Positions 16,911 to 63,362 are shown, numbered from the stretch's first letter. The stretch: 64,000 nt of DNA from Candidatus Altarchaeum sp. (GCA_018260615.1 JAGWDQ010000053.1:1286-65285); one strand, 5' to 3'. Made by a program: numbers and translations. Notes: a model not told the origin generated them from the sequence alone.

Positions 16911-17837
16911 TTAGTTTTCTTGTTCAGTTATAATTTCGGGTTCCGGATAATCAAAGTCCGGTTTTTCCTCAAATAGTTTCTTTTGTTTGATTACCTCGTT
17001 GATTCTTGTCAGTGCAGTTTCGCAATATTTCTTAGATATGTCTATACCTATAAATCTTCTTTTCAATTTGAAGGCGACTAATGTTGTGGTTCCGGCGCCA
17101 TTAAACGGATCTAAAACTATATCTCCTTTGTAAGAAAATAATTTCAAAGCTCTTTTTGGTAGTTCTTCCGGAAACATTGCCGGATGCCCAAAGTCCTTCA
17201 TTTTCGTCTCAGGAGTAAATTTCCACTTTGCATAAACACATTCTTTAAATTCTTCACCGGTTATATCAATATGTTCTTTTTTACCTGTTTTTTTATGGGT
17301 TTCTTTATCAAAAATTTCTATAAACTCCCAGGTGTATTTTAAATAAGGCATTGACGGTGATTTCCAGCTTCCCCACGCCGTGTATTTTGCATTATAATTA
17401 TTTTTTTCCCATAATACTTCAGCTTTCCATAAAAAGCCCAAATCAAGTAATTGCTTTGAAATTATATGGTGTGTCGGTACATAATCAGAAAATAACGGCT
17501 GGACATTTACTATTATTCTTCCGCCGGGTTTTATTATCCTGTAACATTCTTTCCAGACAACAAATAATTTTTTAAAATATTCGTTCCATTCTTTTGTATC
17601 CTGTGTTGTATCGTTTGCATAACTATGACCAAAGTTATAGGGTGGTGAAGTTAATACTATATCTATAGAATTAGATGGAATCTTAGATAGTACCTTTTCA
17701 GCATCGCCTACTATGATTTTATTGTTCAACTTTTTAATATCCGGATTTTCAACTGAAAAAATATCTTTCTTTTCTTCTTTTGTACCTTTTCTTATCTTCT
17801 CTTTTATTCCTTTATCTTTTATTTTTTCGGGGCTCAT
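16911..17837 (-). CDS. beta-class N4-cytosine/N6-adenine DNA methyltransferase
   Basis: motif IV DIVLTSPPYNF precedes motif I LDPFNGAGTT (beta-class order); 4-nt overlap with the upstream REase fragment. Confidence 0.85.
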   Translation of the reverse strand: MSPEKIKDKGIKEKIRKGTKEEKKDIFSVENPDIKKLNNKIIVGDAEKVLSKIPSNSIDIVLTSPPYNFGHSYANDTTQDTKEWNEYFKKLFVVWKECYRIIKPGGRIIVNVQPLFSDYVPTHHIISKQLLDLGFLWKAEVLWEKNNYNAKYTAWGSWKSPSMPYLKYTWEFIEIFDKETHKKTGKKEHIDITGEEFKECVYAKWKFTPETKMKDFGHPAMFPEELPKRALKLFSYKGDIVLDPFNGAGTTTLVAFKLKRRFIGIDISKKYCETALTRINEVIKQKKLFEEKPDFDYPEPEIITEQEN

Positions 17838-18657
17838 AATATTTTACCTTCTTTAATAAGTTTTTGTTCTATATTTGACCAGTCCCTTTCTAAGTGATTT
17901 CTAACAAATTTGAAAAGATCTTTTACTACTTCAAAATCTATGGGTTTACTATTCTTACTCTTTCTTTTTTCTTTTCTCAAAACATAAATTTGGTTAATTC
18001 TTGAATAAGCAGGATCAACATCCAAACTCACATCATAACATTCTGTAATCACGAGAAATAAACAATAAGGATTGCCATTTTTTATTTTTTCGGCAGTAGC
18101 AATTGAACCCTCAAGCATTGTTTTATCAATGTATGTTTTGCATTCAATAGAAACAACAGGAACATTAATCAATTTTTGTTCTCCATCCGCTTTTATCAAA
18201 ATTGTCCGGTAAATGGCAAAGTCCTGGTCCTTTTCATTAATCTTCATATTCGGCGTTTTGATGAAGTCCACCAAATTCTCCGGTGCAAAATATAAATTAC
18301 TGTACGCCCTTGTGTCACCTAATTGTATTTTTTTAATCTCCTCGCTAAATAATATAAGAATTCTTCCGGGACAGTTGAATGAAATTTAGATTGTGCGGAA
18401 AAATCTACATTTTTAATCTCGTTTTTATAATCATTCAACCACTTGACTCTTTGATTTATCGCATCATCCGAATATTCGGTTAGGATTTCATTATTATTAT
18501 TCCATTCTTTATATTTTTCAATAACTTTTTGCAGTTGCTTTTTTTGAGTAGTAAACAAAATAGATGATATCTGCAATTTTGCAAGTATGTTTCTTCCATG
18601 AATATGAGATTTGTTTAAATTTTCTTTAAACCAAGCAATTTCTTTTTCCATAGTCAT
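17834..18657 (-). pseudogene. type II restriction endonuclease split into two ORFs (18319..18657 and 17834..18274) at an A7/T7 homopolymer
   Basis: upstream ORF ends ...FHSTVPEEFLYYLARRLKKYN*; the frame of the downstream ORF is open back through the T7 run at 18328-18334; adding one A would fuse them; downstream part has an ExK-like SIECK motif. Confidence 0.55.
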
Positions 18658-18675
18658 TTTACCCTTTTTAAATTT

Positions 18676-19744: not shown

Positions 19745-19930
19745 ATGGACACAAAAATTAAGAGCCGTCCAAAGGAGGATTTACTGCTTTTGAAGAAAAT
19801 CGAAAGTTCAATGCTTCAGGATGATATTGCCACTTTGGAAGAAGTGAAAAAAGCGTGGAACGAAATCGAAAGGGGAAAATGTATGTCATCTTCTAAGAAG
19901 GAATTTCTTGCTGATCTTAAAAAATGGTAG
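19745..19930 (+). CDS. small hypothetical protein (61 aa)
   Basis: ORF only; its C-terminal half is duplicated in the next ORF. Confidence 0.35.
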   Translation: MDTKIKSRPKEDLLLLKKIESSMLQDDIATLEEVKKAWNEIERGKCMSSSKKEFLADLKKW

Positions 19931-19970
19931 AAATTTTTGACATTTCAAATTTATCAAAGAATTTAAAAAA

Positions 19971-20153
19971 ATGGAAAACACAACTAATTTGGATGAACAG
20001 ATAATTGAATCATGGGACAATTCAAAAATATTTGAAAGCAATAAAATAACAAATTCTCTTAAAGAGTTAAAAAAAGCATGGAAAGAAATAGAATCAGGAA
20101 AATGTCAGTTAGATTCCAAGCAGAAATTTCCTGCCGAACTTGAAAAATGGTAA
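19971..20153 (+). pseudogene. chimeric ORF: diverged copy of leuS codons 1-25 fused to a copy of the C-terminal half of ORF 19745..19930
   Basis: MENTTNLDEQIIESWDNSKIFESN vs leuS MENTTKFLDEQIIESWSNSKIFESN; LKELKKAWKEIESGKCQLDSKQKFPAELEKW vs LEEVKKAWNEIERGKCMSSSKKEFLADLKKW. Confidence 0.6.
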
Positions 20154-20198
20154 AAGTAAAATTTTTATAAGAAAGTCATAAAAAACAAGCAAACCAAA

Positions 20199-22994
20199 AT
20201 GGAAAATACAACTAAATTTTTAGATGAACAAATAATTGAATCATGGTCTAATTCAAAAATATTTGAAAGCAATGCAGATAAGAACAAACCAAAATATTTT
20301 ATTACGGTTCCGTATCCCTATACATCAGGAGCGTTGCATATCGGACATGCCCGAAGTTATACTTTGGGAGATGTGACGGCAAGATATTACCGGCTGAAGG
20401 GTTTCAATGTTCTGTTTCCAATGGCATTTCATATAACGGGAACTCCTATACTCGCGATAGCAAAAAGAATAGAAAAAAATGACGAAGGAATGCTCAAGAT
20501 GCACAAGGAATATGTTTCTATTTATGAAAAAGACGAAAGCAAAATCAATGAAATAGTTGAATCATTTAAAAATCCGGAAAATCTTGCAAATTATTATGCA
20601 GGTGTAATAATTGCCGATTTTAAAAGAATGGGTTATTGCATTGACTGGCGGAGGAAATTTAACACAGGTGAGAAATTTTACAATAAATTTGTTGAATGGC
20701 AATTCAAAAAACTCGCAGTTCAAAATTTAATAATCAAGGGAAAGCACGCTGTGTATTTTTGCCCTTCCTGTAACAATCCCGTAACAACCGATGATATAAA
20801 AGGCGGCGATGAATTAGACATTGAAATGAGTGAATACTATTTGCTCAAAGAAAAACTTGCCGGTGAGGACTGCTATTTGGTTGCCGCAACCTTACGTCCC
20901 GAAACAATCTTCGGTATTACAAATTTATGGGTTAATCCCGAAAAAATTTATGTCAAAGCAAAGGTAAATGACGAGACATGGCTCATTTCAAAAAAAGCAG
21001 GCGAAAAATTAAAAAAACAGGGATTTGAAGTCACCGTTATTGAAGAATTTAAAGGAGAAAATTTGAGCGGCAAAAAAGTAATAATTCCCTTAACAAACAA
21101 AGAGGTTGAAATTTTAAGAGCAAATTTTGTTGATGACGACACGGCAACAGGGGTTGTAAATTCTGTTCCCGGGCACGCACCTTACGATTATATTGCCTTA
21201 AGGGACTTAAAAATAAATTTTGAAATTTTAAAAATAATTGACTCAAAGATTAAGATTGAAGAAATTGTTAAAGATATAAAAGACCAAAAGGATGAAGGAC
21301 TTGAAGAAGCAACACAGGAATTATATAAGGATGAATTTTACAACGGAATTATGAATGAAAACTGCGGGGAATTCAGGGGAATGAAAGTGGCGGTTGCCAG
21401 AGAAAAGGTTGCCGAAAAACTTAAATCGCTAAATTTATTAGGCAAAATTTATGAAAATAATATTAAAGACAAGGACGGGAAAATAGTCAAAGCCACATGC
21501 CGATGCGGAACGGAATCTGAAATCAGGGTGCTTGAAGACCAGTGGTTTTTAAATTATGCCGATGAGGGATGGAAAATTTTAGCCCGAAAAATTTTGAAAA
21601 ACACAGCAATTGAGCCGGAAATTTATCGGACTGCATTCATTAACTCAATTGAATGGCTTCACGAATGGTCGTGCACAAGAAACAGGGGACTTGGAACGAA
21701 ATTTCCTTACGACAACAAATGGATGATTGAAAGTTTAAGCGACAGCACAATTTACATGGCATTTTACACAATTGCACATTTATTGCGGAATTTGAGCGCT
21801 GATGAGTTGGATGAGAAATTTTTTGACTATGTGTTTTTAGGTAAGGAGTTTGACGGATGCGAGAAGTATAAGGAAATAAGGGAAACATTTATTTATTACT
21901 ATCCGATGGATGAGCGAAGGACAGGAATAGCCCATATTTCAAATCATCTGACATTCAGTTTGTTCCATCACGCAGCAATATTTCCCGAAAATTTGTGGCC
22001 AAAAAAATTTTCCCTGAACGAAATGCTCGTTGCAGAAGGAAAAAAGATGTCAAAATCACTCGGAAATGTGATTCCCATCAAAAACGCATGTGAGAAATTT
22101 GGTGCCGATACTGTCCGATTACATTTGTGTTATGCGGCAGACTCTTCCTCAACCCTTGACTGGAAAGAAAAAGAGGTAATTGCCACTAAAGCAAAGATAG
22201 AGGAATTCATAAATTTTATAAATTTATTTCAGAATACAAATTCCGCTTGCGAAACAGAAGAAGGTAAAATCAGTGATGTGGACAGATGGCTCATTTCAAA
22301 ATTTAACAGACATTTGGAGGAATTTTTAAATTTAATGGACAAATCCGAAATACGAGAGGCAGTTCAGAAAATTTTCTATGAATTTTTTAATGATATAAAG
22401 TGGTATTTGAGGAGAACAGAACCAAACAAAAAGGTCTTGAAGGAAATTTCCGAACAGTGGGTTAAAGTTATGAGCATATTTATTCCATTTACCTGTGAAG
22501 GACTATGGAAAAAGAGCGGAAAAAGCAATTTTGTCAGTGCAGAGGATTCTTTAAAGGCAGATAAAAATGCAATTAACGAGAATGCTGAAAGTATGGAATT
22601 TATGGTAACCGAATTGATTGATAATATCCGAAATTTTGCCGAATTAATAGGAAAATACAAAAAGCCGACTAATGTTTTCATTTACTTTGCAGAGGACTGG
22701 AAAAGGGAATTGTTTGCAAAAATTATGGGAGGAAAAAACATAAAAGATGTAATGGCTGATGAAAAATTTAAGAAACATTCAAAGGATGTTGTGGCAATAA
22801 TGCAAAAGACCCATAAAGGCGATATTAAATTTATTCCGACTATTGAAGAAGAAGTTAGAATGACTGGGGAAGCAAAGGAGTTTTTAGAGAAAGAATTAAA
22901 TTTAAAGATAGAGATTGATGTTAATGCAGACTACGATCCGAAAGGCACGAGAAAGTTTGCGATGCCATTAAAGCCGGCAATTTATATTGAATAA
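20199..22994 (+). CDS. leuS: leucyl-tRNA synthetase (archaeal type)
   Basis: HIGH motif (ALHIGHARSY) and KMSKS motif; 931 aa. Confidence 0.95.
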   Translation: MENTTKFLDEQIIESWSNSKIFESNADKNKPKYFITVPYPYTSGALHIGHARSYTLGDVTARYYRLKGFNVLFPMAFHITGTPILAIAKRIEKNDEGMLKMHKEYVSIYEKDESKINEIVESFKNPENLANYYAGVIIADFKRMGYCIDWRRKFNTGEKFYNKFVEWQFKKLAVQNLIIKGKHAVYFCPSCNNPVTTDDIKGGDELDIEMSEYYLLKEKLAGEDCYLVAATLRPETIFGITNLWVNPEKIYVKAKVNDETWLISKKAGEKLKKQGFEVTVIEEFKGENLSGKKVIIPLTNKEVEILRANFVDDDTATGVVNSVPGHAPYDYIALRDLKINFEILKIIDSKIKIEEIVKDIKDQKDEGLEEATQELYKDEFYNGIMNENCGEFRGMKVAVAREKVAEKLKSLNLLGKIYENNIKDKDGKIVKATCRCGTESEIRVLEDQWFLNYADEGWKILARKILKNTAIEPEIYRTAFINSIEWLHEWSCTRNRGLGTKFPYDNKWMIESLSDSTIYMAFYTIAHLLRNLSADELDEKFFDYVFLGKEFDGCEKYKEIRETFIYYYPMDERRTGIAHISNHLTFSLFHHAAIFPENLWPKKFSLNEMLVAEGKKMSKSLGNVIPIKNACEKFGADTVRLHLCYAADSSSTLDWKEKEVIATKAKIEEFINFINLFQNTNSACETEEGKISDVDRWLISKFNRHLEEFLNLMDKSEIREAVQKIFYEFFNDIKWYLRRTEPNKKVLKEISEQWVKVMSIFIPFTCEGLWKKSGKSNFVSAEDSLKADKNAINENAESMEFMVTELIDNIRNFAELIGKYKKPTNVFIYFAEDWKRELFAKIMGGKNIKDVMADEKFKKHSKDVVAIMQKTHKGDIKFIPTIEEEVRMTGEAKEFLEKELNLKIEIDVNADYDPKGTRKFAMPLKPAIYIE

Positions 22995-22998
22995 ACGA

Positions 22999-23063
22999 GC
23001 TCACACAAAGACACAGGGACACAAAGATAAGTCATCTGTGACTTTGTGGCTCTGTGTGAGAGC
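22999..23063. repeat. cacaaag-type hairpin repeat
   Basis: ctcacacaaagacacagggacacaaag...ctgtgactttgtggctctgtgtgag; arms ctcacaca/tgtgtgag and cacaaag/ctttgtg; starts 5 nt after the leuS stop. Confidence 0.8.
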
Positions 23064-23129
23064 AATATGACATAGTGTAAATAAATTCATAAATTTATTG
23101 TAATTATTCACTTCAAACTAATATTTAAG

Positions 23130-26100
23130 ATGGAGTTACTATTTCCATTTCCGGAAATCCGAAACGGACAAAAAGAACTAATAGATGATATCAAAACCGT
23201 GCTTGAAACAGGAGGCACACTGCTCGCTCACGCTCCAACGGGAATCGGTAAAACAGCAGCCGCCCTGACCCCCTCCCTTGAATATGCCTTAAACAACGAC
23301 AAAATTGTCTTTTTTCTTACATCAAAACAATCCCAGCATAAGATTGTAATTGACACGCTGCGGCTTATAAAAGAAAAAAATAAAGATAATGTCAGCTTTT
23401 CGGTTGTTGACATAATATCCAAGCAGGCAATGTGTCCGAGGGATATTGCACGGGAACATTATGCATTGTTTGATGATCTTTGTCTCCATGACCAGAAAAC
23501 GAAGAAGTGCAGATATTTCAGGAGTGATAAGAACATTACAAACCACATACTGAAGAATATCATGCATGTTGAGGAGCTGAAGGATTTTTGCGCCAGGAAT
23601 GTAATCTGCCCGCACAAAACAGCAAGTGATGCGATATCCGATGCCAACATCGTTATATGTGACTACAACTACATGTTCACGGATATTCTTGAAACCGTTC
23701 TTGAGAAAACCCATAAATCAATCGGTGACCTGATTTTAATCATTGACGAAGCTCATAATCTCCCTGACCGAATAAGAGACCAGCTTTCCGGTGAGCTCAC
23801 AATAAATCTCATTGAAGAAGCAGCGAAGGAAATAAAGTCCGTTGATGAAAAACTTTACAGGTACCTGAAAGGCATTGGCAGGTTTTTTGACGATTTCATC
23901 CGACGTATGCCCGGAAACGCAGAGAAAAACATTAACCGGGAAGATATCACGACAGGAGTTGAGCAGGTACTTCAGGAATCTATTGGCGACAGTATGAGTT
24001 ACCTTGAGTTTGTTGATGCCTTAAAAGCGGCAGGAGTTGAGCTTGCTGAAAAAAAGCAGTACGAGGAAAAAAAGAAATCTTCTATAACTTCAGTAATGGA
24101 ATTTCTTGAGACCTGGAACACCCTGCTTCCGTGCTCGCGGGTTTATAAAAACAAGAACACGCCAACGCTTTCGTTTCGGCTTCTTGATCCGTCAGTACTG
24201 AGCGAGAGCATAATCTCAAACGCTTATGCAACAGTCCTGATGAGCGGAACACTATATCCTGTGGAAATGTACGCTGACATATTGGGGGCAAAGCATTCAC
24301 TACTTAAGCAATACGAATCACCGTTTCCTTCCGAAAACAAAATTGTTTTGGTGACAAAAAAACTCACCACGCTTTACACCGAGAGGGGTGATTCAATGTA
24401 TGGCAATATTGCAGAAAAAATATCAAAAGTCCATGACACAGTTAAAGGGAACATTGCCGTGTTCTTTCCTTCATATTCTCTAATGGATGAAATATACAAA
24501 AAATTTGAAAGCAGCCCCGACTTTGAAATTCGGGACAAAACAGGCGACATCCTCCTTGAGGGGAGGTGCATGAGTAAAGCCGCTAAAGATGAATTATACC
24601 GGAAATTAAAAATAAATTCAAATAAAATTCTGATGGGCGTGCAGGCAGGTTCTCTTTCAGAAGGCGTTGATTACAGGAACAACATTATTCGCGCGGTATT
24701 GATAGTCGGACTGCCATTGAGTCCGCCAACTCTTGAAGTAAAAAATTTGCAGGATTATTACATTAAGAAATTCGGTAAAGAAAAAGGAACGCTCTACGGA
24801 TACATATATCCTGCAATAAGCAAGGTGATACAGGCGGCAGGACGCGGTATCAGGAGCGAAAACGATATCGGAGCGATAATTCTTATGGACTATCGGTTTA
24901 ATTATCCTATGTACAGGAAATGCCTGCCGCCGGATTATAAAATACAGTTTACTGACGAAGCTGAAAAACTGTGCGGGGAATTCTTTGGTAAAGACCTTGT
25001 GTTAAAAGCACTGGAAGATACAAAAAAGAGAGTCATTGAAGAGGAAGACATAAAATTGATGAAAGAAGAAAAACACATCCTTGCAGAATCAAAATCAGAA
25101 ACAGAATCAAAATCAGAAACAGAAAAACAAGAGGTTCAGGATTCAATTCCGGAAATATCAGAAGAAAAAACCGAAAATAACGACAACCCCGGATTAAATG
25201 TATTGCGTTTGATAGAAACCATAGATTTTCCTGCTGGCAGGTCATTCTTAGCAGGTATACTAACCGGTTCCAAATCAAAGGAATTGATAAATCAGAATAT
25301 TGATAAATCAGAATATTATGGAATGCTGAAAGGATACACTCGCGATGAAGCTATTGATATTATAGACCAGATCACAGGTAAAGGTTATTTGGCAGTTAAG
25401 CAGAGTGAAACAGCAAATTTTCCGAGACCTGTTTTATATCTGACAGAGTTAGGTAAAAACGCATTGTGTAATAATGAGAAAATTGGAGTGAAATTGCCAA
25501 TAAAAATAAACCTTAAAAATAGGGTTGAAACATCCAAGAATCCTGAATTATTAAATGAATTAAAATTTTGGCGTAGAAAAGTTGCCGAAGAAGAAAACAT
25601 CCCGGCATATTGCATTTTCCATGATACAACACTAATTGAAATTTCAAATAGCACGCCTTTCACAAAAGAAAATTTAATGAATATTCGTGGATTTGGTGAA
25701 AAAAGAATTGAAAAATACGGGGATGCTGTGCTGGAAATTGTGAAAAAGTATGTATCAAATGTTGTTTCTGAGAGCAATGTAAAAGAAAATCAGGAAAAAG
25801 AGCAGAAAGAAGCAGAAGGACCACCAGTAAATTCCAAAATGGAATCATCTGAAAAATTAATACATGATAACAATTTAACAATGGATAGAATCAACGCAGA
25901 ACATAAACTAAAAGAAATATTTGGACACGGGCATTTTTACGACACACAATGGGAAACCATTAAAAAAATTTTAAATGGTGAAAGGGTTTTATTAATAGAA
26001 AAAACCGGCTTTGGAAAATCATTGTGTTATCAGTTTCCTGCAACTCAGTTTGAAGGAACCACCGTTATTTTTTCTCCGTTAATTGCATTAATGCGCGATC

Positions 26101-27896
26101 AGGTTAAAAAACTCAGTGAATTAGGAATCAAAGCCAAATGTATAAACAGTGAACAGACACCCGAAGAAAATTCTGAAATAATTGAAGAAGCCAAACAGAA
26201 TAAGATAAAAATCCTCTACATCGCCCCTGAAAGACAGGAAAATACCGAATGGATTGATGCCGCAAGACAAATGAATTTGTCAATGGTGGTTATTGATGAA
26301 GCACACTGCATTTCGGTCTGGGGGCATGACTTCAGACCGTCCTTCAAAAGAATAATCAATCTCGTAAACCTTTTGCCCGAAAATTTTCCAGTTCTGGCAA
26401 CAACCGCAACCGCTACAAAAAGAGTTGAAGAGGATATACTTGAACAGATTGGCGGCAGGATAATTTCTCTAAGAGGAAATCTTTTAAGAGAAAATTTTTA
26501 TTTAAGAGTAATCAGGGTTGAATCGGATGATGAAAAGTTAGTATGGGTGGGTGAAAATATAAATTTAATTCAGGGCAGCGGTATTATTTATACTGGCACC
26601 AGAACAAATACCGAAATTTATTCAAGGTGGCTGCAGTCATTGGGCGTTTCATCTGTTGCATATAATGCAGGTCTGGATGCCGAATCAAGAAAACATATAG
26701 AGCAGGGTTTAATGAACAATACATGGAAATGTGTTGTTTCTACTAACGCTCTGGGAATGGGAATTGATAAACCGGACATTCGTTTTATTATTCATACGCA
26801 AATTCCTGCTTCGCCAATACACTATTACCAGGAAATCGGGAGAGCCGGAAGAGACGGAAAACCAACAGAGATAATTCTTCTTTATAGTCCCAAAGATACA
26901 GACCTGCCAAAATCGTTTATTGAAAATAGCAGGCCTTCAACAGATAAATATCAGCGATTCATTGATGCATTAAAATCAGAACCGTTAGGTGAACAGGATA
27001 TTATGCGGAAGACAAATCTAAATCAAACACAGGTCAGGGTTATTAAAGCTGACTTAATTGATCAGAAAATCATCAATGATGTCTATTATAATAAAAGTAA
27101 AAAATGCGAACTCAAAGTAAATGCACCGGAATTAAATTTTCATTCCTTTGAAGAACTTATAAAGACAAAATTTGCCGAATTATATCAGATGGTAGCATAC
27201 TCAGAAACCACCGGGTGCAGAATGAAATTTCTTTGTGATTATTTGGGTGATATCCTAGAAAAAGATTGTGGGAAATGCGATAATGACCGGACAGAACATA
27301 TCTGTGTAAAGTTAACTGATTACTGGAATAATAAAACTGAAGAATTCAATAATAATTATTTTCCTGAATTGTCTGTAGAATCCAAAGGAACTAATATGGT
27401 TGACGGGGTCGCGGCTTCATATTATGGATTTTCAAATGTCGGCTCGGTGATCCACAGATGTAAATATGAAAACGGGGGTGATTTTCCGGATTTCCTGTTA
27501 AAACAAACACTGAAAGCATTTAGAAAAAAAATTAGTAAAGATAAATTTGATTTGCTTGTTTATGTTCCTCCTACGGAGTCAGGTGATTTGGTTAAAAATT
27601 TTGCTGAAAAGATTTCTTACGCCTTAAAGATTCCTGTTTCCCACAAACTCAAAAAAATAAGGGCTATAAAACCACAAAAGATTTTTCAAAACAGTATTTT
27701 AAAAAGAGATAATGTAAAAGATGCATTTGAGTATGAACATCCGGGGGATATTGAAGGAAAGTCAATTCTGATAGTGGACGATATATTTGACAGCGGACAC
27801 ACCATAAAAGAAATTGGCAGATATTTTACTAAATTTGGGGCGGTAAAAATAGCTCCTTTAACAATAGCTAAAACAATCGGAGGTGATTTATCATGA
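23130..27896 (+). CDS. 1588-aa fusion: XPD/Rad3-type FeS helicase + RQC-like WH + HRDC + RecQ helicase + ComF-type phosphoribosyltransferase domain
   Basis: AHAPTGIGKT, IIDEAHNL, Cys cluster, QAAGRGIRS (XPD part); WRRKVAEEENIPAYCIFHDTTL (HRDC); TGFGKSLCYQ, VIDEAHCISVWGHDFRP, CRMKFLCDYLG..CGKCDN (RecQ); VPPTES...GKSILIVDDIFDSGHT (ComF/PRT). Confidence 0.8.
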   Translation: MELLFPFPEIRNGQKELIDDIKTVLETGGTLLAHAPTGIGKTAAALTPSLEYALNNDKIVFFLTSKQSQHKIVIDTLRLIKEKNKDNVSFSVVDIISKQAMCPRDIAREHYALFDDLCLHDQKTKKCRYFRSDKNITNHILKNIMHVEELKDFCARNVICPHKTASDAISDANIVICDYNYMFTDILETVLEKTHKSIGDLILIIDEAHNLPDRIRDQLSGELTINLIEEAAKEIKSVDEKLYRYLKGIGRFFDDFIRRMPGNAEKNINREDITTGVEQVLQESIGDSMSYLEFVDALKAAGVELAEKKQYEEKKKSSITSVMEFLETWNTLLPCSRVYKNKNTPTLSFRLLDPSVLSESIISNAYATVLMSGTLYPVEMYADILGAKHSLLKQYESPFPSENKIVLVTKKLTTLYTERGDSMYGNIAEKISKVHDTVKGNIAVFFPSYSLMDEIYKKFESSPDFEIRDKTGDILLEGRCMSKAAKDELYRKLKINSNKILMGVQAGSLSEGVDYRNNIIRAVLIVGLPLSPPTLEVKNLQDYYIKKFGKEKGTLYGYIYPAISKVIQAAGRGIRSENDIGAIILMDYRFNYPMYRKCLPPDYKIQFTDEAEKLCGEFFGKDLVLKALEDTKKRVIEEEDIKLMKEEKHILAESKSETESKSETEKQEVQDSIPEISEEKTENNDNPGLNVLRLIETIDFPAGRSFLAGILTGSKSKELINQNIDKSEYYGMLKGYTRDEAIDIIDQITGKGYLAVKQSETANFPRPVLYLTELGKNALCNNEKIGVKLPIKINLKNRVETSKNPELLNELKFWRRKVAEEENIPAYCIFHDTTLIEISNSTPFTKENLMNIRGFGEKRIEKYGDAVLEIVKKYVSNVVSESNVKENQEKEQKEAEGPPVNSKMESSEKLIHDNNLTMDRINAEHKLKEIFGHGHFYDTQWETIKKILNGERVLLIEKTGFGKSLCYQFPATQFEGTTVIFSPLIALMRDQVKKLSELGIKAKCINSEQTPEENSEIIEEAKQNKIKILYIAPERQENTEWIDAARQMNLSMVVIDEAHCISVWGHDFRPSFKRIINLVNLLPENFPVLATTATATKRVEEDILEQIGGRIISLRGNLLRENFYLRVIRVESDDEKLVWVGENINLIQGSGIIYTGTRTNTEIYSRWLQSLGVSSVAYNAGLDAESRKHIEQGLMNNTWKCVVSTNALGMGIDKPDIRFIIHTQIPASPIHYYQEIGRAGRDGKPTEIILLYSPKDTDLPKSFIENSRPSTDKYQRFIDALKSEPLGEQDIMRKTNLNQTQVRVIKADLIDQKIINDVYYNKSKKCELKVNAPELNFHSFEELIKTKFAELYQMVAYSETTGCRMKFLCDYLGDILEKDCGKCDNDRTEHICVKLTDYWNNKTEEFNNNYFPELSVESKGTNMVDGVAASYYGFSNVGSVIHRCKYENGGDFPDFLLKQTLKAFRKKISKDKFDLLVYVPPTESGDLVKNFAEKISYALKIPVSHKLKKIRAIKPQKIFQNSILKRDNVKDAFEYEHPGDIEGKSILIVDDIFDSGHTIKEIGRYFTKFGAVKIAPLTIAKTIGGDLS
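27879..27887 (+). promoter_or_regulatory. Shine-Dalgarno GGAGGTGAT for dprA inside the end of the helicase ORF
   Basis: 5 nt upstream of the ATG at 27893, which overlaps the upstream TGA (ATGA). Confidence 0.6.
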
Positions 27897-28846
27897 TTAA
27901 CAGACCGGAAATACCCTGCCTGATGGCATTAACCCACACCCAGGGATGGAAATATGAACAAATTAATAACATCATCGCAAAAATTAAAGGTAATTCAAAA
28001 TGCAGCATTGCAGAATTCTTTGGTTTATCTCCTGATAACTGGATGGATAATTTCGGATTAAGCAAAAAAGAAACACTCCATTTGGAAAATGTTAAAAAAG
28101 AAATACCCAAATACTCTTTTCTGGCAGAAGATTTATTTGCGCAGGGATATGAAATAATACCTGTAAATTCTCCTGAATATCCTGAAACATTAAAACAAAA
28201 TTTAGGATTCAGGTCACCACCCATTCTTTATGTGAAAGGAAATAAAAATTTATTAAAAGAAAAATCTGTCGCAATTGTTGGCTCAAGGGACGCATCGGAA
28301 ATTGCATTGAAATTTACTGACAACATCGCAATGCTAGCGTCAGGAGAACACAAAGTCGTAGTAAGCGGATTTGCCAGAGGTGTAGATAGGCAGGCACTGG
28401 ACTCCGCACTTAAATATAAAGGTAAAGGTCTTATTGTATTGCCGCAGGGAATAATGACTTTTTATTCTGGATTTAAGGCATATTACAGACAAATTGTTGA
28501 AGGAAATGTTCTGGTCTTAAGCACATTTTTTCCAAAAGCACCGTGGAGTGTGGAACTAGCAATGGCAAGGAATTCTGTAATATATGGTCTGGCAGGAGAA
28601 ATTTATGTGGCGGAATCGAATGAAACAGGCGGAACATGGTCGGGAGTCATGGATGGCATGAGAAAGGGAAGAAAGATATATATCAGAAAACCCGAACCGT
28701 ATGAAAATAATGCAAATAATAAATTAATGGACATAGGAGTTATTCCTGTCAGCTTTGAGGGACAGCCAGTTTTAGGATATAAATCATTGTCCCCTGAAAT
28801 TTACCTGGTTAAAGAAAAACATGAAAAAATAAGTAAGCTGATGTGA
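27893..28846 (+). CDS. dprA: DprA/Smf DNA-processing protein A family
   Basis: YPETLK...PPILYVKGN, VAIVGSRDAS, VVSGFARGVDRQALDSAL, ARNSVIYGLA...VAES..GGTWSG follow the DprA Rossmann-domain pattern. Confidence 0.8.
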   Translation: MINRPEIPCLMALTHTQGWKYEQINNIIAKIKGNSKCSIAEFFGLSPDNWMDNFGLSKKETLHLENVKKEIPKYSFLAEDLFAQGYEIIPVNSPEYPETLKQNLGFRSPPILYVKGNKNLLKEKSVAIVGSRDASEIALKFTDNIAMLASGEHKVVVSGFARGVDRQALDSALKYKGKGLIVLPQGIMTFYSGFKAYYRQIVEGNVLVLSTFFPKAPWSVELAMARNSVIYGLAGEIYVAESNETGGTWSGVMDGMRKGRKIYIRKPEPYENNANNKLMDIGVIPVSFEGQPVLGYKSLSPEIYLVKEKHEKISKLM

Positions 28847-28938
28847 GACGATGATTAAGAAGAATAAATTAATTAAATCTTTTAAATATAATTATCCTGA
28901 AATTTTTAATTTATTATTTATTTAAATTTAAAAACATA

Positions 28939-28974
28939 AATTTAATACAAAATTTAATACAAAATTTAATACAA
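28939..28974. repeat. 12-bp tandem repeat x3 (aatttaatacaa) plus degenerate copies to ~28999
   Basis: read directly; lies just upstream of the FtsZ/tubulin-like gene. Confidence 0.85.
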
Positions 28975-29000
28975 ATTTAACAAATTTAACTAAATTTCAA

Positions 29001-30131
29001 ATGTACGCATTTATCGGTATCGGACAGGGCGGCTGCGGATTACTTGATTCCGCATTTTATGACAAGGACTTATTCAAGGTAGTAAAACCAATAGCAATAA
29101 ATTCCACTGCCAAGGATTTGAAAAATTTAAAGAATATAAAACCACAATACTGGCTTGGAATGAGTAAGGATAAGGGATTTATTGACGGAACGACAAAAAA
29201 TTTAGAAAGTTATTTAGTTGGCGGATACGGACAGGACAGAACAAAATCAAAAGACGACGCCGAAAGACAATATTCCGATTTACAGGAAAAAATAAGATAC
29301 TATCTTGAAACACGAACGGCAAAGGGAAAAGAAATGGCAGTCCAGTTTGCATTTTTGATGACATCCCTTGGCGGAGGAACCGGAAGCGGATTAAGTCCGG
29401 CAATTGCAAAAATTTTAAAGGATTTGGGAATATGTGTAATTGCCGTTCTGATTACTCCTGCAAAAAGCGAGGGCTCACTGACTGCAAAAAATGCCGTTGA
29501 GGCATTGAATGAAATTTATAATTATGCTGACTCAATAATCCTCGCAAGTAATGAAAAAATTTCCTATGCCCAGAATATAGAAGCACTATTTTCCCACTAT
29601 AATGATTACATAGCAAGAAGTTTGGTTGATATTTGTGAAGGAATGACACTTGAACAGATTGACCCGGCAAAATTTGAAGGAAACCCGCCTGTAATAGATA
29701 TGAAGGACTTCATTACCGCAACTTCATTTCTTGATACCCATAAGCCCGGATTTTCAGTTATAGGAAGGGCAAGCGACAATGTCAGGGATATGCTGCATTA
29801 TATTTTTCCGGTCGGGGGCTATAAAGAGATTGATGCCATTGGTTTGATTCAGCAGGCGATGCTTAAATTATCTGCCGACATTGATGATAATGCCAGGAAA
29901 AATTTATGCTTACTCCGCCTTCCGCACAGGTATTTAACATCCGAAAGCAGAATGATAAATACAGAGGTTGTGAGAAATTTCCTGCTTGAGAAAACAGAGT
30001 TGAACGAAACACATTTTGGAATATCCTTAACAAAAAGAAATTTAGCAACTGCAACATTGATTTCATGCCATTCCAAAAAGCCAAGGGATTTTGAAATGCT
30101 TGAAGAATCAGCGGAGAAATATAAGGGATAA
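29001..30131 (+). CDS. divergent FtsZ/tubulin/CetZ-superfamily GTPase
   Basis: T1-like GIGQGGCG, tubulin signature SLGGGTGSG, SNE in the DNE position, T7-like VIDMKDFITA; 376 aa. Confidence 0.7.
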   Translation: MYAFIGIGQGGCGLLDSAFYDKDLFKVVKPIAINSTAKDLKNLKNIKPQYWLGMSKDKGFIDGTTKNLESYLVGGYGQDRTKSKDDAERQYSDLQEKIRYYLETRTAKGKEMAVQFAFLMTSLGGGTGSGLSPAIAKILKDLGICVIAVLITPAKSEGSLTAKNAVEALNEIYNYADSIILASNEKISYAQNIEALFSHYNDYIARSLVDICEGMTLEQIDPAKFEGNPPVIDMKDFITATSFLDTHKPGFSVIGRASDNVRDMLHYIFPVGGYKEIDAIGLIQQAMLKLSADIDDNARKNLCLLRLPHRYLTSESRMINTEVVRNFLLEKTELNETHFGISLTKRNLATATLISCHSKKPRDFEMLEESAEKYKG

Positions 30132-30171
30132 ATAAAGTTGTAGTACTGGAAAGTTTGTTTTATTTTATGAG

Positions 30172-30229
30172 CCTCACACGGAGACACGGAGACACAAAGG
30201 GGAAATACACTCTGTGACTTTGTGTGAGC
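30172..30229. repeat. cacaaag-type hairpin repeat
   Basis: ctcacacggagacacggagacacaaag...ctgtgactttgtgtgag; same family and same orientation as 22999..23063. Confidence 0.8.
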
Positions 30230-30235
30230 ATTCTT

Positions 30236-32191
30236 TTATTTTTTAACCGCACCTGCCCAAATCCGTATAAGTCCCTTTGCCTGATTTCTCACATCGCTCT
30301 TTGTCATTCCTGTCTTCAATGCATTAAACGCGAGAATTCCGTAATTTTCTGACTTGTAATCATTGCACGCTTCGTCTATCTTTTCAGCAAGGGAAATTTT
30401 ATCCGGCATGACTTCTCCGTTTTGCGACGGGAAATTTTCATATTCAACCATATACCCGTTTCCTTCAACAACATTGCCATTTTCATCCCTTTTTGCCGGA
30501 TTTAGACGCTCCGGAATTACACCGTCAGCCGTTGCTATTGTAGGTGCTCCGTTTTGCTGTGCTTTTGCATAGCCCGTAGGTCCGGCTTCTTTTCCTTTCC
30601 ATGATAACATTCCGCTAAAATCAGTTCCCTGATTAAGTATGCTGGAATTAAATATATCGTAATTTTTAATAAATACAATGTGTTCTTTCATTCCGGAATC
30701 CCTGCTTATAATTTCTTTAACCCTCTCTTCCTGTCTATTTCCATAATCGTCAAATTTTCTCCCGCCGATAAATATTACAGCATTGTTTTTAATTATTTTC
30801 TCGTTAAATTTTGCATCGCTAATAACATCTAAAACTATATCTACACATTTATAACTAACCAATCTTCTGACAAATGTGAAAAATGGCATACCTAAAAGGT
30901 CAATATTGTTAGTCCTTAATTCATCGCCGGTAAAATTTATTTTTCCGTAAGTTCCTTTGAGCAGTTCGGCAATAAAATTTTCCTTTTGTTGTCTTTTTGC
31001 ATTCATCAGTTCGGCAATAAAATTTTTTTTAAATGAAGGATTATCCTCTAAACTGTTAAATAGCGATTCGTAATTTTTTGAGTCCGTTTTATTCATATAA
31101 CTTTCAATAAGCCCTTTAATTTCTTCTCCCTGCCATCTGTCAATATACGCACCTTCGCTGTTTCCAAATATGTCATCGTAAGCAACCTTTTCTTTAAATT
31201 TTTTAAATATATCATCTTTGAGAACATTTGTATGCATGACGGAACATCCGGTAATCACATCGCTAACCCTTCCGGTAATTTCTGTCAAATCCACAATTTT
31301 GTCATGGACAGTATCACTAAACTCTTCGGATATATTCAATCCGGAAAACATATTAGCATGATAATGAGGAATTCCGGCAGGAACTATTGTGTGGTTGTAG
31401 TGATGAACAATTATATTTTTGAATACCGGATCAGATTTGTATTCATCCTCAACAACAGACGGAATTGCCAGTGTTGTATTTACCTCGCTTGTAGAAAACA
31501 GCAAAACATTATTGTTCGCGTTTTTGTTGTCATCTGATCTTTTTATATGTCCCTCTTTTATTTGTTCTTCAATAAACCTTAAAATAACCTTTCTGTAAAG
31601 CAAACTTTGAACCGCCCTGAAATCATCATCCGAAGTTCCGCAGTATGCCTCGTGAAAAATTTCCGGACAGTAAAGCCAGTACTCTTTTAATTCCGAAAAC
31701 GGATTCATATAAATTTCTACATTTACTTTTTTAATTCCTTTTAAATTTATTTCTACATCTTTATAGACCTTTACTTTATCAAGGGATTCCTTTACTATCT
31801 CAACAATGTCTTTTTTAATTCCTTTTGAAACGATATTACCTTCGCCTTTTATGTATTTTGCATAAAGCACACCGAATACATGCAAATGTCTTCTGGCTTC
31901 AATACTTCCCCAGTATGTGCTCATCACATCATACCAACCTCTGACCAGATCCGGCTTAAAACTACCCAAACCCCCTGCCATAAGAAGTTTTGAAAATTCC
32001 CCGGTGTTGTATCTCGCATCCTCATCGGAACATGTCTTAAATTTAATAAGTTTGTTGTAAAGTTCATTTAAAAATTTCATTGAAAGTTCATATTCCATTT
32101 GAAGTACAAATATGTTTATAGCTCTTATTTTTTCCAGGGCATCAGTTAATGATTTTTCTTTTTCCGCACTGCATGCATCAGCATCATACAT
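30236..32191 (-). CDS. divergent alpha-glucan phosphorylase-like protein (GT35-like)
   Basis: AGGLGS, HHYNHTIVPAG, ITGCSVMH, GKEAGPTGYAKAQQNGAPTIATADG resemble the GGLG, HT.v.AG, NGVS..H and EASGT..MK..NG...DG blocks of GT35. Confidence 0.55.
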   Translation of the reverse strand: MYDADACSAEKEKSLTDALEKIRAINIFVLQMEYELSMKFLNELYNKLIKFKTCSDEDARYNTGEFSKLLMAGGLGSFKPDLVRGWYDVMSTYWGSIEARRHLHVFGVLYAKYIKGEGNIVSKGIKKDIVEIVKESLDKVKVYKDVEINLKGIKKVNVEIYMNPFSELKEYWLYCPEIFHEAYCGTSDDDFRAVQSLLYRKVILRFIEEQIKEGHIKRSDDNKNANNNVLLFSTSEVNTTLAIPSVVEDEYKSDPVFKNIIVHHYNHTIVPAGIPHYHANMFSGLNISEEFSDTVHDKIVDLTEITGRVSDVITGCSVMHTNVLKDDIFKKFKEKVAYDDIFGNSEGAYIDRWQGEEIKGLIESYMNKTDSKNYESLFNSLEDNPSFKKNFIAELMNAKRQQKENFIAELLKGTYGKINFTGDELRTNNIDLLGMPFFTFVRRLVSYKCVDIVLDVISDAKFNEKIIKNNAVIFIGGRKFDDYGNRQEERVKEIISRDSGMKEHIVFIKNYDIFNSSILNQGTDFSGMLSWKGKEAGPTGYAKAQQNGAPTIATADGVIPERLNPAKRDENGNVVEGNGYMVEYENFPSQNGEVMPDKISLAEKIDEACNDYKSENYGILAFNALKTGMTKSDVRNQAKGLIRIWAGAVKK

Positions 32192-32289
32192 TTTGTTAAA
32201 TTTCGGCTTTATTTTTTTGTTAAATTTTGCTTAATGAATTAAAATTTCATGGTTTATTTTGGATATTATTCCTGAATCTGTAACTACAG

Positions 32290-32650
32290 CAAGATTTTGA
32301 AATTTTTGAAATATCCGAACGATTTTAAAATCCTCAAAGGATTTTTAAATACACGATTTTCAAAACTGCGGTTTTCAAATCGCATTTTCAAAACGCAGAG
32401 TTTTGAAAATCTCCGAGCAAGAGCGAGGTGAGAGTTTTGAAAATCTCCGAACGATTTTCAAAATCGCAGAGTTTTGAAAATACACGAACGAAGTGAGCGT
32501 AAGTGAGGTGAAGTTTTGAAAAGACACGAACAAAGTGAGCGGAACGAAGTGAGCGTAAGTGAGGTTATTTTTAAAATTGCAGAAATTTTAAAAATGCACG
32601 ATTTACAAACGAAGTGAGTGGAATGGCAGTGAGCGTAAGTGAAGTGACAT
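32290..32650. repeat. mosaic hairpin repeat cluster abutting the IS left end
   Basis: ttttgaaaatctccgagcaagagcgaggtga; repeated cgaacgaagtgagcgtaagtgaggtga units; ttttcaaaacgcagagttttgaaaat hairpins. Confidence 0.85.
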
Positions 32651-32652
32651 TA

Positions 32653-34857
32653 AACATGGATTTATACTTTCTTAAATAACATAACAAAAAATACATTGTA
32701 ATGTAATAATTATAGCTTCTGATTAGATTTTTAATTTTGTTCAAATAAAGTGTGTATAAGTTATTTCTTTTATAAAATATTATATTTGGTAGAATATCCT
32801 CCTCAATAATTAGTTATTCATCAAAGAATGTATTATTTGAATTCTATAAATTTTATTATTAATAGTTGATTCCTTTTTTCTTGAAAATAGTATTTAATTA
32901 CATCTTTTTTTTAGAAATTACAAAAAATCTATAAAACTTTTTATTTTTAAGTATGTAAATGTAATATAATAATACAAAAATAAATTCTTAAATAAATAAC
33001 AAAAATAAAATGAATTCCGAAACGAAAAAATAGATAAAGAATTGTTAAATGCTGTGGACTTGAATGAGATTGCCGAAGGGAATGAGGAGCACACAACCTT
33101 ATTAGATATAGCAATGAGAAGAATATCCCTCAAAGAAGGGGCAAAACAATTAAATATTAGATATGGTGCTATCAGAGGAAGGATTTACAGAATTAAACAT
33201 CGTAGCGACAAATCAAAACCTTACAGTAAAAAACCAGGACCAAAATCAAGATATAAGATATCAGAACACAAAGATCTGATAAGAGAATATAGGAAAAAAG
33301 GCTTAACTTCAGAAGAGATAAGTAATGTGTTGAGGGAAACTATCAATGTAGATATATCTTCAATCACTATCGGCAGATTTTTAAGTGAAGAAGGATTCCT
33401 TAGACAGTACAATAGAACCTCACGACAAAAAGAAGATACACTAATGGACATTAAAGATATCATCATAAGTTACAAAACAAAATATCATCATAAGTTACAA
33501 AACAAAAAATAGAAAAGACATTAATCAACTGATTAGGGACAAATTCGAGTCATTGTATGCAGGACTCGGTATATTCATGGCATTAATTGAAGAGTTGAAT
33601 ATCTTAAAAATAATAAGAGATTCATACTTATCTAATGCAAGACTGATAGAAAGTTATGTTCTAACCATTCTCGGTTTAAAGCTTATCCAGAAGAAAAGAC
33701 GTTCAGATATAGAATACTTAAGTGAGGAAGAAATGATTGCTTTATTCAGTGGCAGAGATAAAGTTTTGAGTTGCACGGCTTTGCACAGATTCGATTATGA
33801 TATGAGAAAAGACATGATGGAGAAAATGAAAATAATCTACATTCAAGTGTTAAGGAAATACCTAGATATGAGTGTGCTTAACATAGATTTCCATATAATC
33901 CCACATTTTGGAGAATCTGATGTGCTTGAAATTAATCACGTCTCTTCCAGAGGAAAGAATATGAAAGGGGCATTGGTTTTTCTTGTGCAAGATAGGGAAA
34001 GTAAAATATTCTCATACAGTCATGCAAATATAAAAAGAAGCGAAGCAAGTGATGAAACCATAAAGTTTTTAGAAAAAATTGAAAAGATAAAAATAAAACC
34101 AGAATGGCTGGTTATCGATTCAAAAGTGACCAAATACAAAAATATAGCAAAGATAAAGGCACGGGGAGTTGATGTAGTCACTATACGGCGTAGGGGTGAG
34201 AAGATGATCGAAGAGGTCGAGAATGCAAAAAAGGATCCAAACGTCTGGACAACAGTAAGAATTAAACGCACAAAAGGAGGATGGGAAAAAATAAAGGTTT
34301 GGACAAAAACGATAACTGTTGGTTATCGCGACGATGACAAAAAGTGAAAAAAAATAAAAATGCGGCAATTAGCAGTTATCAATAGTCACGAAAAGCCGAT
34401 GTTCATAATAACCACGGATTTCAAACATTCTATAAAAGATATTGTTGAAATGTATCCTCCTCGCTGGTTAATAGAACTTGGAATAAAAACACAGACAAAA
34501 TTTTTTGATCTTAATCAATTAGCATCCGACCTTGATGTAAAAATGGATTTCGATACTTTTTTAACACAAATCGCACATATGCTTTATCAGATACTGGCAA
34601 AAAATTTATATTGTCATGAAAATTCGGAGCCTGAAAAAATATATCAAAAATTTATTGAAGGCGCTGGAAAAATAAATGTATATGATGATAAAGTGGTTGT
34701 ACGGTTAAAGAAGAAAAGATCAACGGGTTATTTGATTAATGCACCTATTTTAGAGGGGTGGGTTGATGGAGGAAAAAATATCTCGTGGTTAGGAAAGAAA
34801 CTAGAGATTATCTGGGAATAAAATGTTATGGAAATTATGAAAGTATAAATCCATGTT
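32653..34857 (+). mobile_element. IS element (~2.2 kb) with 19-bp perfect terminal inverted repeats and a decayed DDE transposase
   Basis: aacatggatttatactttc (32653-32671) and its exact reverse complement gaaagtataaatccatgtt (34839-34857); three consecutive transposase ORF fragments inside. Confidence 0.8.
33042..34821 (+). pseudogene. DDE transposase (IS4/IS1634-like) broken into three ORFs
   Basis: 25-bp tandem duplication (33467-33491 / 33492-33516) shifts the frame between ORF 33042..33512 and 33553..34347; in-frame TGA at 34345-34347 separates 33553..34347 from 34360..34821; C-terminal YPPRWLIELGIK resembles the Y..RW.IE motif. Confidence 0.7.
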
Positions 34858-35369
34858 CAATATATGATGATGTTTTGTTTAGTGTGAATGAGAAAGGAAT
34901 TTCTGTAAATGTGGTATTTTGAGCTCCTGAAAAATGTTATTTTTAAGATTTTGTGAAAAATCTTGTGAAGAAAAATGGCTGATCATAAATTTTTGAGATT
35001 TTTTATCAAATATTTCTAAACGTAAAACAAATAATTAACCATATTTTTGCGAAATGGGAAACTTTTGTAAAAAGTTAATTTATAAAGCACTAATTATTAA
35101 AGTTATTGTAATTAAATTTAATATAATTAATTACTCGAAAAAACCATTTAGTTTTGAGTATATAAATATTAGAATTGCTATAGTAACATTTATAGAGTGA
35201 TGAAAATGTCCCAAATTAAGCAAATTTCAAATTTTTGTGTCGCCCGATTATATTGATTTTGAAAATGCGATTTTCCAAAAAAAAAATAGGGTTTTTCAAC
35301 ACTCTTAACAAATCAGAAAATTAAATGATTTTTTAAAATAATTAGTTTTGTATAGTGAAAAATATCAAA

Positions 35370-39951: not shown

Positions 39952-40075
39952 TATACCTGAGTTTGAAAGATATTTAAAAAATGTCTAAAAACACCTTTAA
40001 AATTGTCTTTTTGTTGCCATGTCAATTTTACAATTTTAAAGGTCAAAACCCCATAACTTTCAAAGACAGGTTATA
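39952..40075. mobile_element. 124-bp MITE-like element, copy 2
   Basis: internal sequence identical by eye to 739..862; flanked by ttatac on both sides; 128 bp downstream of tRNA-Ser. Confidence 0.7.
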
Positions 40076-40166
40076 CTTAAAATTAATATGGTGTATTTAT
40101 TTACCTTTATTGGTTAATTAATATTTAATTAAAAAAATAAAAAAGTTTAAATCACACTATGTAAAG

Positions 40167-62997: not shown

Positions 62998-63069
62998 CAT
63001 TTCAAATTTAAAAGAATTAATTTAAAAGAATTAATTTTTAACATCTAATTTATTACATGAATTTATTAT

Positions 63070-63336: not shown

Positions 63337-63362
63337 TTAAAATTACAGAAATTTAATTATGT

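Follow-up and report, generated by a model that had tools for sequence, protein, structure and literature searches.

A 64,000-nucleotide stretch of DNA from Candidatus Altarchaeum sp. (GCA_018260615.1 JAGWDQ010000053.1:1286-65285), referred to below as the window, contains a 1588-aa open reading frame (ORF) at 23130-27896 (+) without an internal stop. The ORF runs from an XPD/Rad3-type helicase into a RecQ-like helicase with a C-terminal phosphoribosyltransferase (PRTase), and its end overlaps a DprA-like gene. We consider it likely that this arrangement represents a strain-variable PsyrTA/RqlHI toxin–antitoxin cassette that was joined in frame, probably by recombination in the HRDC domain, to a conserved XPD-RQC-HRDC gene of the host. 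The setting is archaeal, as an earlier note made from the sequence alone had assumed. An archaeal signal recognition particle RNA lies within the window at 63068-63338, and the nearest named homologues of the leucyl-tRNA synthetase (LeuRS) are those of Altiarchaeota, at ~50% identity (one 80% match is labelled "groundwater metagenome").

Layout of the locus

The features of the locus are given below in their order along the window; amino acid positions are those of the 1588-aa protein unless otherwise stated.

23130-25745 (+): host helicase segment, aa 1-872, with XPD core, acidic linker, RQC and HRDC
23130-24932 (+): XPD/Rad3-type iron-sulphur (FeS) helicase core, aa 1-601
aa 67-224: DEAD_2 (Pfam)
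aa 278-418: HBB (Pfam)
aa 433-600: Helicase_C_2 (Pfam)
25197-25499 (+): RQC winged helix, aa 690-790 (Pfam PF09382, 49 bits)
25545-25742 (+): HRDC, aa 806-871 (Pfam PF00570, 69 bits)
25746-28961 (+): whole strain-variable cassette, 3216 bp
25746-25880 (+): variable tail, or linker, joining the two halves, aa 873-917
25845-25847 (+): TCA codon of Ser906, TAA in the equivalent position of L006/L007
25852-25863 (+): AT-rich TATA-like element, AAAAATTAATAC, ~23 nt before the ATG at 25881
25881-27896 (+): PsyrT/RqlH toxin module, aa 918-1588, 671 aa
25941-26429 (+): DEAD, aa 938-1100 (Pfam)
26568-26858 (+): Helicase_C, aa 1147-1243 (Pfam)
27159-27287 (+): RecQ_Zn_bind, aa 1344-1386 (Pfam)
27600-27851 (+): Pribosyltran, the C-terminal PRTase, aa 1491-1574 (Pfam)
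27893-28846 (+): second ORF, 317 aa

The catalytic motifs are intact throughout. The XPD half carries GIGKT at 38, DEAH at 206 and QAAGRGIR at 568, together with the four FeS cysteines (Cys 102/118/127/160), the columns of which are invariant across the family alignment. With DEAD_2, HBB, Helicase_C_2, the four-Cys cluster, Walker A, DEAH and motif VI, it has the defining features of the XPD/Rad3 family, and it scored above the cut-off of TIGR00604 rad3 (264.2 vs 246.95). The RecQ half has GFGKS at 960, DEAHC at 1056 and QEIGRAGRDG at 1234, and the PRTase retains the acidic loop that binds phosphoribosyl pyrophosphate (PRPP), VDDIFDSGHT, at aa 1549-1558. Within the acidic linker, Tandem Repeats Finder reported an 18-bp tandem repeat, SKSETESKSETE, at 25084-25124 (+) with 2.3 copies and 100% matches; the orthologues P0001-P0004 have similar low-complexity text at this place. 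At the other end of the ORF, its TGA overlaps the ATG of the second gene, psyrA, as ATGA (27893-27896), 5 nt after a Shine-Dalgarno-like GGAGGTGAT at 27879-27887 (+). The earlier note had described an uninterrupted frame of 1588 codons, five domain parts, an 18-bp repeat in the linker and an ATGA coupling with a Shine-Dalgarno sequence 5 nt upstream; each of these was borne out, the five parts by Pfam.

The back half of the ORF and the next gene match PsyrTA/RqlHI

By their profile matches, the back half of the ORF and the gene that follows it are the already-described PsyrTA/RqlHI toxin–antitoxin, or anti-phage, pair. The PADLOC PsyrT profile aligned with residues 920-1586 over positions 5-688 of 689 (887.6 bits, E 1.4e-267), and the PsyrA profile matched the 317-aa protein with 247.4 bits (E 6.7e-74). 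The ShosTA profiles were far weaker, with E 2.4e-7 for ShosT on the toxin and only 113.8 bits for ShosA on its partner. The helicase core passed the cut-off of TIGR00614 recQ_fam and fell below that of the RecQ equivalog TIGR01389 (486.9 vs 640.2); together with its Zn module, this core matches the structure of E. coli RecQ (1oyw, 255 bits). Pfam DNA_processg_A covers aa 84-278 of the 317-aa protein with 133 bits, and the nearest solved structures to this protein are DprA (3uqz) and ShosA (9vzo). A search of the PDB found no solved structure of PsyrT type.

Database homologues of the PsyrT part number in the thousands. Those listed, over 100, are spread across several bacterial phyla, with KSB1, Ignavibacteria, Calditrichaeota, Bacteroidetes, Cloacimonetes and Smithella represented, and most of them are standalone proteins of 670-672 aa with 65-72% identity. 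Counted from Met918 (nt 25881), the toxin of the window has 671 aa, the commonest length among them. As it stands, the window toxin is not a separate protein of ~670-690 aa, there being no stop upstream of Met918; sister alleles do have a standalone toxin of PsyrTA size. An overlapping DprA-like gene accompanied PsyrT in all seven recovered cassette-bearing loci that extend past PsyrT, and the pairing was seen in L011-L017 and L102-L104. The coupling to a DprA-like gene that the earlier note had stressed is thus kept in relatives.

Sberro 2013 is reportedly among the sources for the PsyrTA/RqlHI system. RqlH couples a RecQ-like helicase to a C-terminal PRTase, which is genotoxic and drives SOS induction and filamentation; toxicity of the E. 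coli protein requires D663 in the PRPP loop, and RqlI, a partner homologous to DprA, binds RqlH and counteracts it (PMC4670107). PsyrTA, with its DprA-like antitoxin and PRTase toxin, is among the toxin–antitoxin systems that protect from phage (Millman 2022, 10.1101/2022.05.11.491447). In ShosTA, the toxin is a PRPP-binding PRTase that interferes with purine metabolism and with DNA replication, and the antitoxin is DprA-like, DNA-binding and unstable, the trigger being a phage host-shutoff protein (PMC11961720, PMC12961424). The earlier note knew of no described system with the present architecture, but the combination of a RecQ-like helicase-PRTase with a downstream DprA-like gene is already known as PsyrTA/RqlHI (PADLOC; PMC4670107; 10.1101/2022.05.11.491447).

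The same genes could also be read, as the earlier note had done, as a module for handling single-stranded DNA like that of natural transformation, in which a ComFC-type PRTase and DprA work with XPD and RecQ helicases in place of ComFA. The PRTase does match ComF weakly (TIGR00201, E 9e-10), its partner belongs to the DprA fold family in Pfam, and the ComF/DprA analogy was discussed for RqlHI by Russell and Mulvey in 2015 (PMC4670107). Scores on the curated models fall far short of their cut-offs, however: comF scored 38.8 vs a cut-off of 233.55, and the 317-aa protein scored 103.2 vs 191.15 for TIGR00732 dprA and 80.5 vs 495 for PRK10736. The ComF and DprA labels thus stand at the level of Pfam Pribosyltran and DNA_processg_A and fail at that of the TIGR models, whereas the PsyrT/PsyrA models fit far better and end to end. 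In addition, the pair is strain-variable and lies beside other variable restriction-modification genes, RqlH is toxic via its PRTase and is counteracted by its partner (PMC4670107), and the system counts as anti-phage defence (10.1101/2022.05.11.491447). We therefore regard a competence-type function as extremely improbable. A role in defence, which the earlier note had offered as the alternative, is the one supported by the PsyrT/PsyrA matches and by the listing of PsyrTA among phage defences.

The front half is a host gene that also occurs without the cassette

The best matches to the whole ORF, P0001-P0004, have lengths of 874-910 aa and align with just the first 55-57% of it. All four consist of XPD, RQC and HRDC: P0001 (97% identity, 877 aa), P0002 (85% identity, 910 aa), which has PsyrT as a separate gene downstream, and P0003 and P0004 (both 84% identity; 899 and 874 aa, respectively). 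On the contigs of P0001 and P0004 (L001-L005), the order is LeuRS, helicase, tubulin-like gene and phosphorylase, without a PsyrT or DprA-like gene. Judged by these orthologues and their neighbours, aa 1-872 is a conserved XPD-RQC-HRDC host gene of an Altiarchaeota-related lineage, located between leuS and a tubulin/CetZ-like gene.

Nucleotide comparison placed the edges of the additional DNA. By blastn, window 20124-25745 is collinear with L001 1-5610 at 96.8%, and collinearity resumes at 28962 (window 28962-32708 vs L001 5680-9422), such that 3216 bp of the window stand in place of 69 bp in the empty site of L001. Taken in 150-nt windows, identity to L001 is 97-100% for most of the helicase gene's 5' two-thirds. 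The metagenome-assembled genome (MAG) GCA_017973855.1 contains both the empty-site contig L001 and a 3.3-kb cassette contig, L013, which is the pattern expected of a presence/absence polymorphism in a population. From the blastn break and the presence of empty and cassette contigs in one MAG, we therefore conclude that 25746-28961 is a strain-variable cassette.

The contigs of P0003 (L008-L010) have LeuRS and the helicase followed by two small ORFs, without PsyrTA, and end before the tubulin gene. At L008 7394-7879, and likewise in L009 and L010, the helicase has a different tail and the two ORFs encode 47 and 100 aa with no Pfam match. Because these contigs carry a different tail and small ORFs at the same site, they suggest that the 3' end of the host helicase gene is a general hotspot for variable cargo.

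The family of proteins with an XPD/Rad3 core, RQC and HRDC (23130-25745; P0001-P0014; L101, L105-L108) spans 45-97% identity in Altiarchaeota-related archaea, and no description of it was found in the literature searched. A paralogue with an N-terminal DuOB domain adjoins two DUF488 genes. No adjacent PsyrTA was present at the paralogous DuOB-XPD loci L101 and L105-L108; a PsyrT gene after the DuOB-XPD-RQC-HRDC-HEAT paralogue P0006 (L101) was ruled out, the gene downstream being that of an aminoacyl-tRNA synthetase.

The cassette begins at the end of HRDC

Homology to every cassette-less allele stops at 25742-25745, in the final HRDC codons. Cassette-bearing alleles end their HRDC in GDA(V/I)LEI..Y and empty alleles in GDD(I/V)L.IV..H; in the window, the last ~10 codons of HRDC are of cassette type (GDAVLEIVKKY). 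P0005, the helicase of L102-L104, has an empty-type HRDC and then a partial RQC and a cassette-type HRDC in tandem. The end of HRDC is, on these breakpoints, the probable recombination joint. At the right edge of the cassette, Tandem Repeats Finder reported 4.7 copies of a 12-bp tandem repeat, AAATTTAATACA, at 28924-28980 (+); no target-site duplication was seen at the cassette ends, the right one of which lies within these AT-rich 12-bp repeats.

Elsewhere, PsyrT itself is found behind the same domains. P0364 is a single 887-aa ORF of RQC-HRDC-PsyrT; P0189 (HEAT-HRDC-PsyrT, 893 aa) is present on 17 contigs, and P0123 (HRDC-HEAT-PsyrT, 912 aa) lies on L014, both with a DprA-like gene downstream. 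The linker that follows HRDC in P0123, leading to HEAT, is homologous to the tail in the window. On L014, which belongs to the MAG of L001, a DuOB-RQC ORF lies ahead of P0123 and is separated from it by a frameshifting deletion. A full-length search of 5.8 billion clusters listed 120 proteins, none of which was another XPD-PsyrT fusion. In an exhaustive search of 1.84 billion proteins, the seven extended PsyrT representatives checked had RQC, HRDC, TPR, MutS_I, pentapeptide or HhH additions and no XPD module.

Fused and split alleles of the junction

Four lineages, including that of the window, have the cassette at this site, and the other three hold a stop, each at a different place. In L006/L007 (~88% nt identity), the helicase shares the long tail of the window and ends with TAA where the window has TCA; 33 in-frame nt then lead to a PsyrT start at the equivalent of Met918. 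In L011/L012 (~95%), an AT-rich stretch of ~270 nt with a stop in it stands in for the middle of the tail, and PsyrT is called from the equivalent of Met904 (25839 in the window). In L102-L104 (helicase ~71-76%, PsyrT ~89%), TAG directly follows HRDC, and the homologous tail is degenerate, its frame changed and several stops present. The five-part architecture proposed by the earlier note is therefore not conserved as such: XPD-RQC-HRDC is a separate protein in the closest relatives, the cassette is patchy, and a stop separates the halves in three lineages.

We considered whether the fusion could be an artefact, in which a sequencing or assembly error, or a chimera of strains, deleted a real stop. 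The long ORF hangs on a short linker in which relatives hold stops, one of them with TAA at the very codon that is TCA in the window, and a polymorphic region with empty and cassette contigs in one MAG is prone to mis-assembly. Nevertheless, the identical 1588-aa protein is encoded on three long contigs, one of which, a 56.5-kb contig from ENA, shows 4 differences to the window in 10,767 bases, every one of them within the LeuRS gene. The fused ORF is not an assembly slip, since that contig was assembled independently. Furthermore, L011, L012 and L013 share the TCA codon, a Logan contig is identical to the window over 26549-29570, and the tail of the window is set apart from that of L006 by several substitutions and a 27-nt indel that keeps the frame, rather than by a single base. 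A single-base error as the source of the fusion is largely rejected by the identical ORF elsewhere and the shared TCA, and an artefact of any kind is very unlikely. A sibling ENA sample has the split L011-type allele. Exact-pattern scans of metagenomes for the tail and for the spacer gave no match and hence no further junction alleles.

The tail itself has 45 codons, and it is open in the helicase frame, as are only 1.4% of composition-matched shuffles; each of the other two frames holds four stops. The tail thus behaved as coding sequence in the lineage of the window. The 33-nt spacer that contains AAAAATTAATAC matches L006 at 30 of 33 and L011 at 32 of 33 positions, whether or not it is coding. 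The element could be an internal archaeal promoter for a leaderless psyrTA mRNA, and PsyrT may also be made alone from Met918.

These properties bear on a different explanation, according to which the 1588-aa protein is a functional two-motor machine with the DNA-recognition modules RQC-HRDC between the motors; it would deliver or gate the PRTase toxin on certain DNA structures, controlled by the DprA-like antitoxin, and the fusion would then have been selected, possibly as the ancestral state, and the relatives would have split secondarily. Going by their families, the two motors would run in opposite directions, the XPD type 5'-3' and the RecQ type 3'-5'. Neither the helicases nor the PRTase have lost a catalytic motif, the linker is open to a degree rarely reached in shuffles, and the identical fused protein recurs on three contigs. 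The stops at three different positions fit three independent splits of an ancestral continuous ORF, and the outgroup locus L014 and the proteins P0189 and P0364 are continuous (RQC-)HRDC-PsyrT ORFs. Large N-terminal additions are tolerated by the PsyrT family, and DinG-RecQ fusions of ~1850 aa exist (P0031). By contrast, neither the 120 listed proteins nor the seven extended representatives include XPD joined to PsyrT, the genes are separate in three of the four cassette-bearing lineages, several close relatives are without the cassette, and most listed homologues are standalone. We find a selected two-motor protein unlikely, and we prefer the capture of a PsyrTA cassette by the host helicase gene.

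Neighbouring genes and other observations

A second strain-variable cassette lies at window 16911-18657 (-). Its ORFs encode an N6/N4 DNA methyltransferase (16911-17837), part of a restriction endonuclease of Bpu10I type (17834-18274; 64 bits in Pfam, over profile positions 50-161 of 218) and a product of 112 aa without a match. Window 16949-18671 is absent from L002/L003, where it would be expected between a CTP_transf-like gene and DHDPS. A 961-aa Eco57I/N6_Mtase protein, of type IIG-like restriction-modification, is encoded at 11969-14854 (-). Its gene lies ~8-11 kb ahead of the large ORF and lends the surroundings a slight resemblance to a defence island. Just after the PsyrTA cassette, a gene of the tubulin/FtsZ family at 29001-30131 scored below the FtsZ equivalog cut-off and is possibly CetZ-like; its orthologue in L011 is split into ORFs of 79 and 265 aa. 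Dispersed intergenic repeats occur at 720-860, 19848-20273 and 39960-40085, segments of which match the same stretches of L006 at 81-92%, and a 244-bp unit is present once in the window (34880-35123) and twice in L001 (9500-9743 and 9821-10064).

Two observations were made outside the window. L014 1-11702, a second PsyrTA-like locus, contains, in order, DuOB-RQC, HRDC-HEAT-PsyrT, the DprA-like gene, a 1136-aa Dna2/AAA_11/AAA_12 helicase and a Schlafen/AlbA_2 protein, and looks like a defence island. P0031, P0032 and P0035 (~1850 aa) combine an RNase_T-type exonuclease, a DinG/XPD-family helicase and a RecQ core with Zn module, and provide an independent precedent for XPD-family and RecQ helicases on one chain.

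Discussion

We propose that a PsyrTA cassette, of toxin–antitoxin or abortive-infection type and with its own RQC-HRDC, would recombine with the HRDC of the host helicase, in an event of entry or exchange. The joint would fall in the last HRDC codons because PsyrT variants share the RQC-HRDC module with the host helicase. Helicase and toxin would be left in one frame across a short, fast-evolving linker; since the linker of the window has no stop, an XPD-RQC-HRDC-RecQ-PRTase protein of 1588 aa is predicted, and translation in this strain would continue from the helicase into the toxin. By analogy with E. coli RqlHI and with ShosTA, the PRTase would be a toxic, DNA-damaging effector that acts on nucleotide or DNA metabolism, and, as in RqlHI, PsyrA would bind PsyrT and restrain it. 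If the model of ShosTA applies, a phage that shuts off host protein synthesis would cause the loss of the unstable antitoxin, and replication would be poisoned. To our knowledge, toxin release upon infection has been described for ShosTA only and not for PsyrTA. The RecQ core, and in some variants RQC-HRDC, may target or regulate the toxin on DNA.

Several points weigh against this proposal or parts of it. A genome scan with the XPD-RQC-HRDC alignment matched at least 80 loci, those listed being more distant XPD relatives at 33-53% identity; among these archaeal loci there was neither RQC-HRDC detectable at E 1e-8 nor an adjacent PsyrTA, a result that speaks to distant XPD relatives only. Recombination at HRDC is probably what joined the two parts, and it is read from breakpoints and one tandem duplication. 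The linker is open beyond chance, which hints that the fusion may be maintained rather than accidental. The fused state of the junction could be ancestral or derived, and the stops of the three other lineages may be independent secondary splits. The 317-aa PsyrA covers only positions 37-292 of the 398-position profile and has no C-terminal part; RqlI 1-320 of E. coli, without the C-terminal 80 residues and the helix-turn-helix, gave nearly complete rescue (PMC4670107). Finally, toxicity, neutralisation and phage defence at this locus are predicted from bacterial homologues. A further, quite unlikely, possibility is that the fused protein is a selected and working RecBCD-like two-motor sensor of foreign or damaged DNA, with RQC-HRDC between an XPD-type and a RecQ-type motor of opposite polarity (judged by their families), and that it gates a PRTase restrained by the DprA-like antitoxin. 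PsyrTA cassettes would then also spread in these archaea by docking onto host XPD-RQC-HRDC genes, with their own RQC-HRDC as homology arm.

The locus is of value mainly for the natural series that its alleles form and for the mechanism of capture that it suggests. Among closely related genomes, the same cassette is fused, split in three ways or absent. The locus further suggests a route by which a housekeeping gene may acquire a defence cassette: homologous recombination would use the shared HRDC, and dedicated mobility genes would be unnecessary. Should the fusion prove functional, a PsyrT-type effector would for the first time be linked to a second helicase, from another superfamily branch, and there would be a natural experiment on how the poorly understood PsyrTA reads DNA. 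Annotation pipelines should call the locus neither archaeal competence machinery nor a novel five-domain repair enzyme. The addition of XPD to PsyrT is a novelty that has so far been seen in a single strain-level lineage; RQC-HRDC N-terminal to PsyrT is already in the databases, uncharacterised; and the archaeal setting of PsyrTA is unusual.

Comparison with known systems

The locus is closest to PsyrTA/RqlHI, with which it shares the RecQ core, the Zn module, the C-terminal PRTase with an intact PRPP loop and the DprA-like partner immediately downstream and overlapping. It differs from the characterised examples, which are bacterial, in being archaeal, in that its toxin ORF extends upstream into a complete XPD-RQC-HRDC helicase, and in its short antitoxin of 317 aa, which is without the C-terminal region of the profile. 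P0364, P0189 and P0123 resemble it in having RQC and/or HRDC N-terminal to RecQ-PRTase on one chain; to this, the window adds ~680 residues of an XPD/Rad3 helicase, a second and unrelated member of superfamily 2 that none of the three has.

Canonical RecQ matches in its helicase core and Zn module. There, however, RQC and HRDC come after the core, whereas in the fused ORF they stand in front of it and the protein ends in a PRTase; the ORF has neither the core-Zn-RQC-HRDC order nor the equivalog score of canonical RecQ. The ComFA/ComFC/DprA machinery is similar in its ComF-type PRTase fold, DprA-fold partner and associated helicase; in contrast, the locus is without a ComFA-type helicase, its ComF and DprA matches are below the curated thresholds, and its genes form a variable cassette of defence type. 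ShosTA also pairs a PRTase effector with a DprA-like antitoxin. Although ShosT is without a helicase and the proteins of the window fit the PsyrT/PsyrA profiles much better, ShosTA is the likely mechanistic model.

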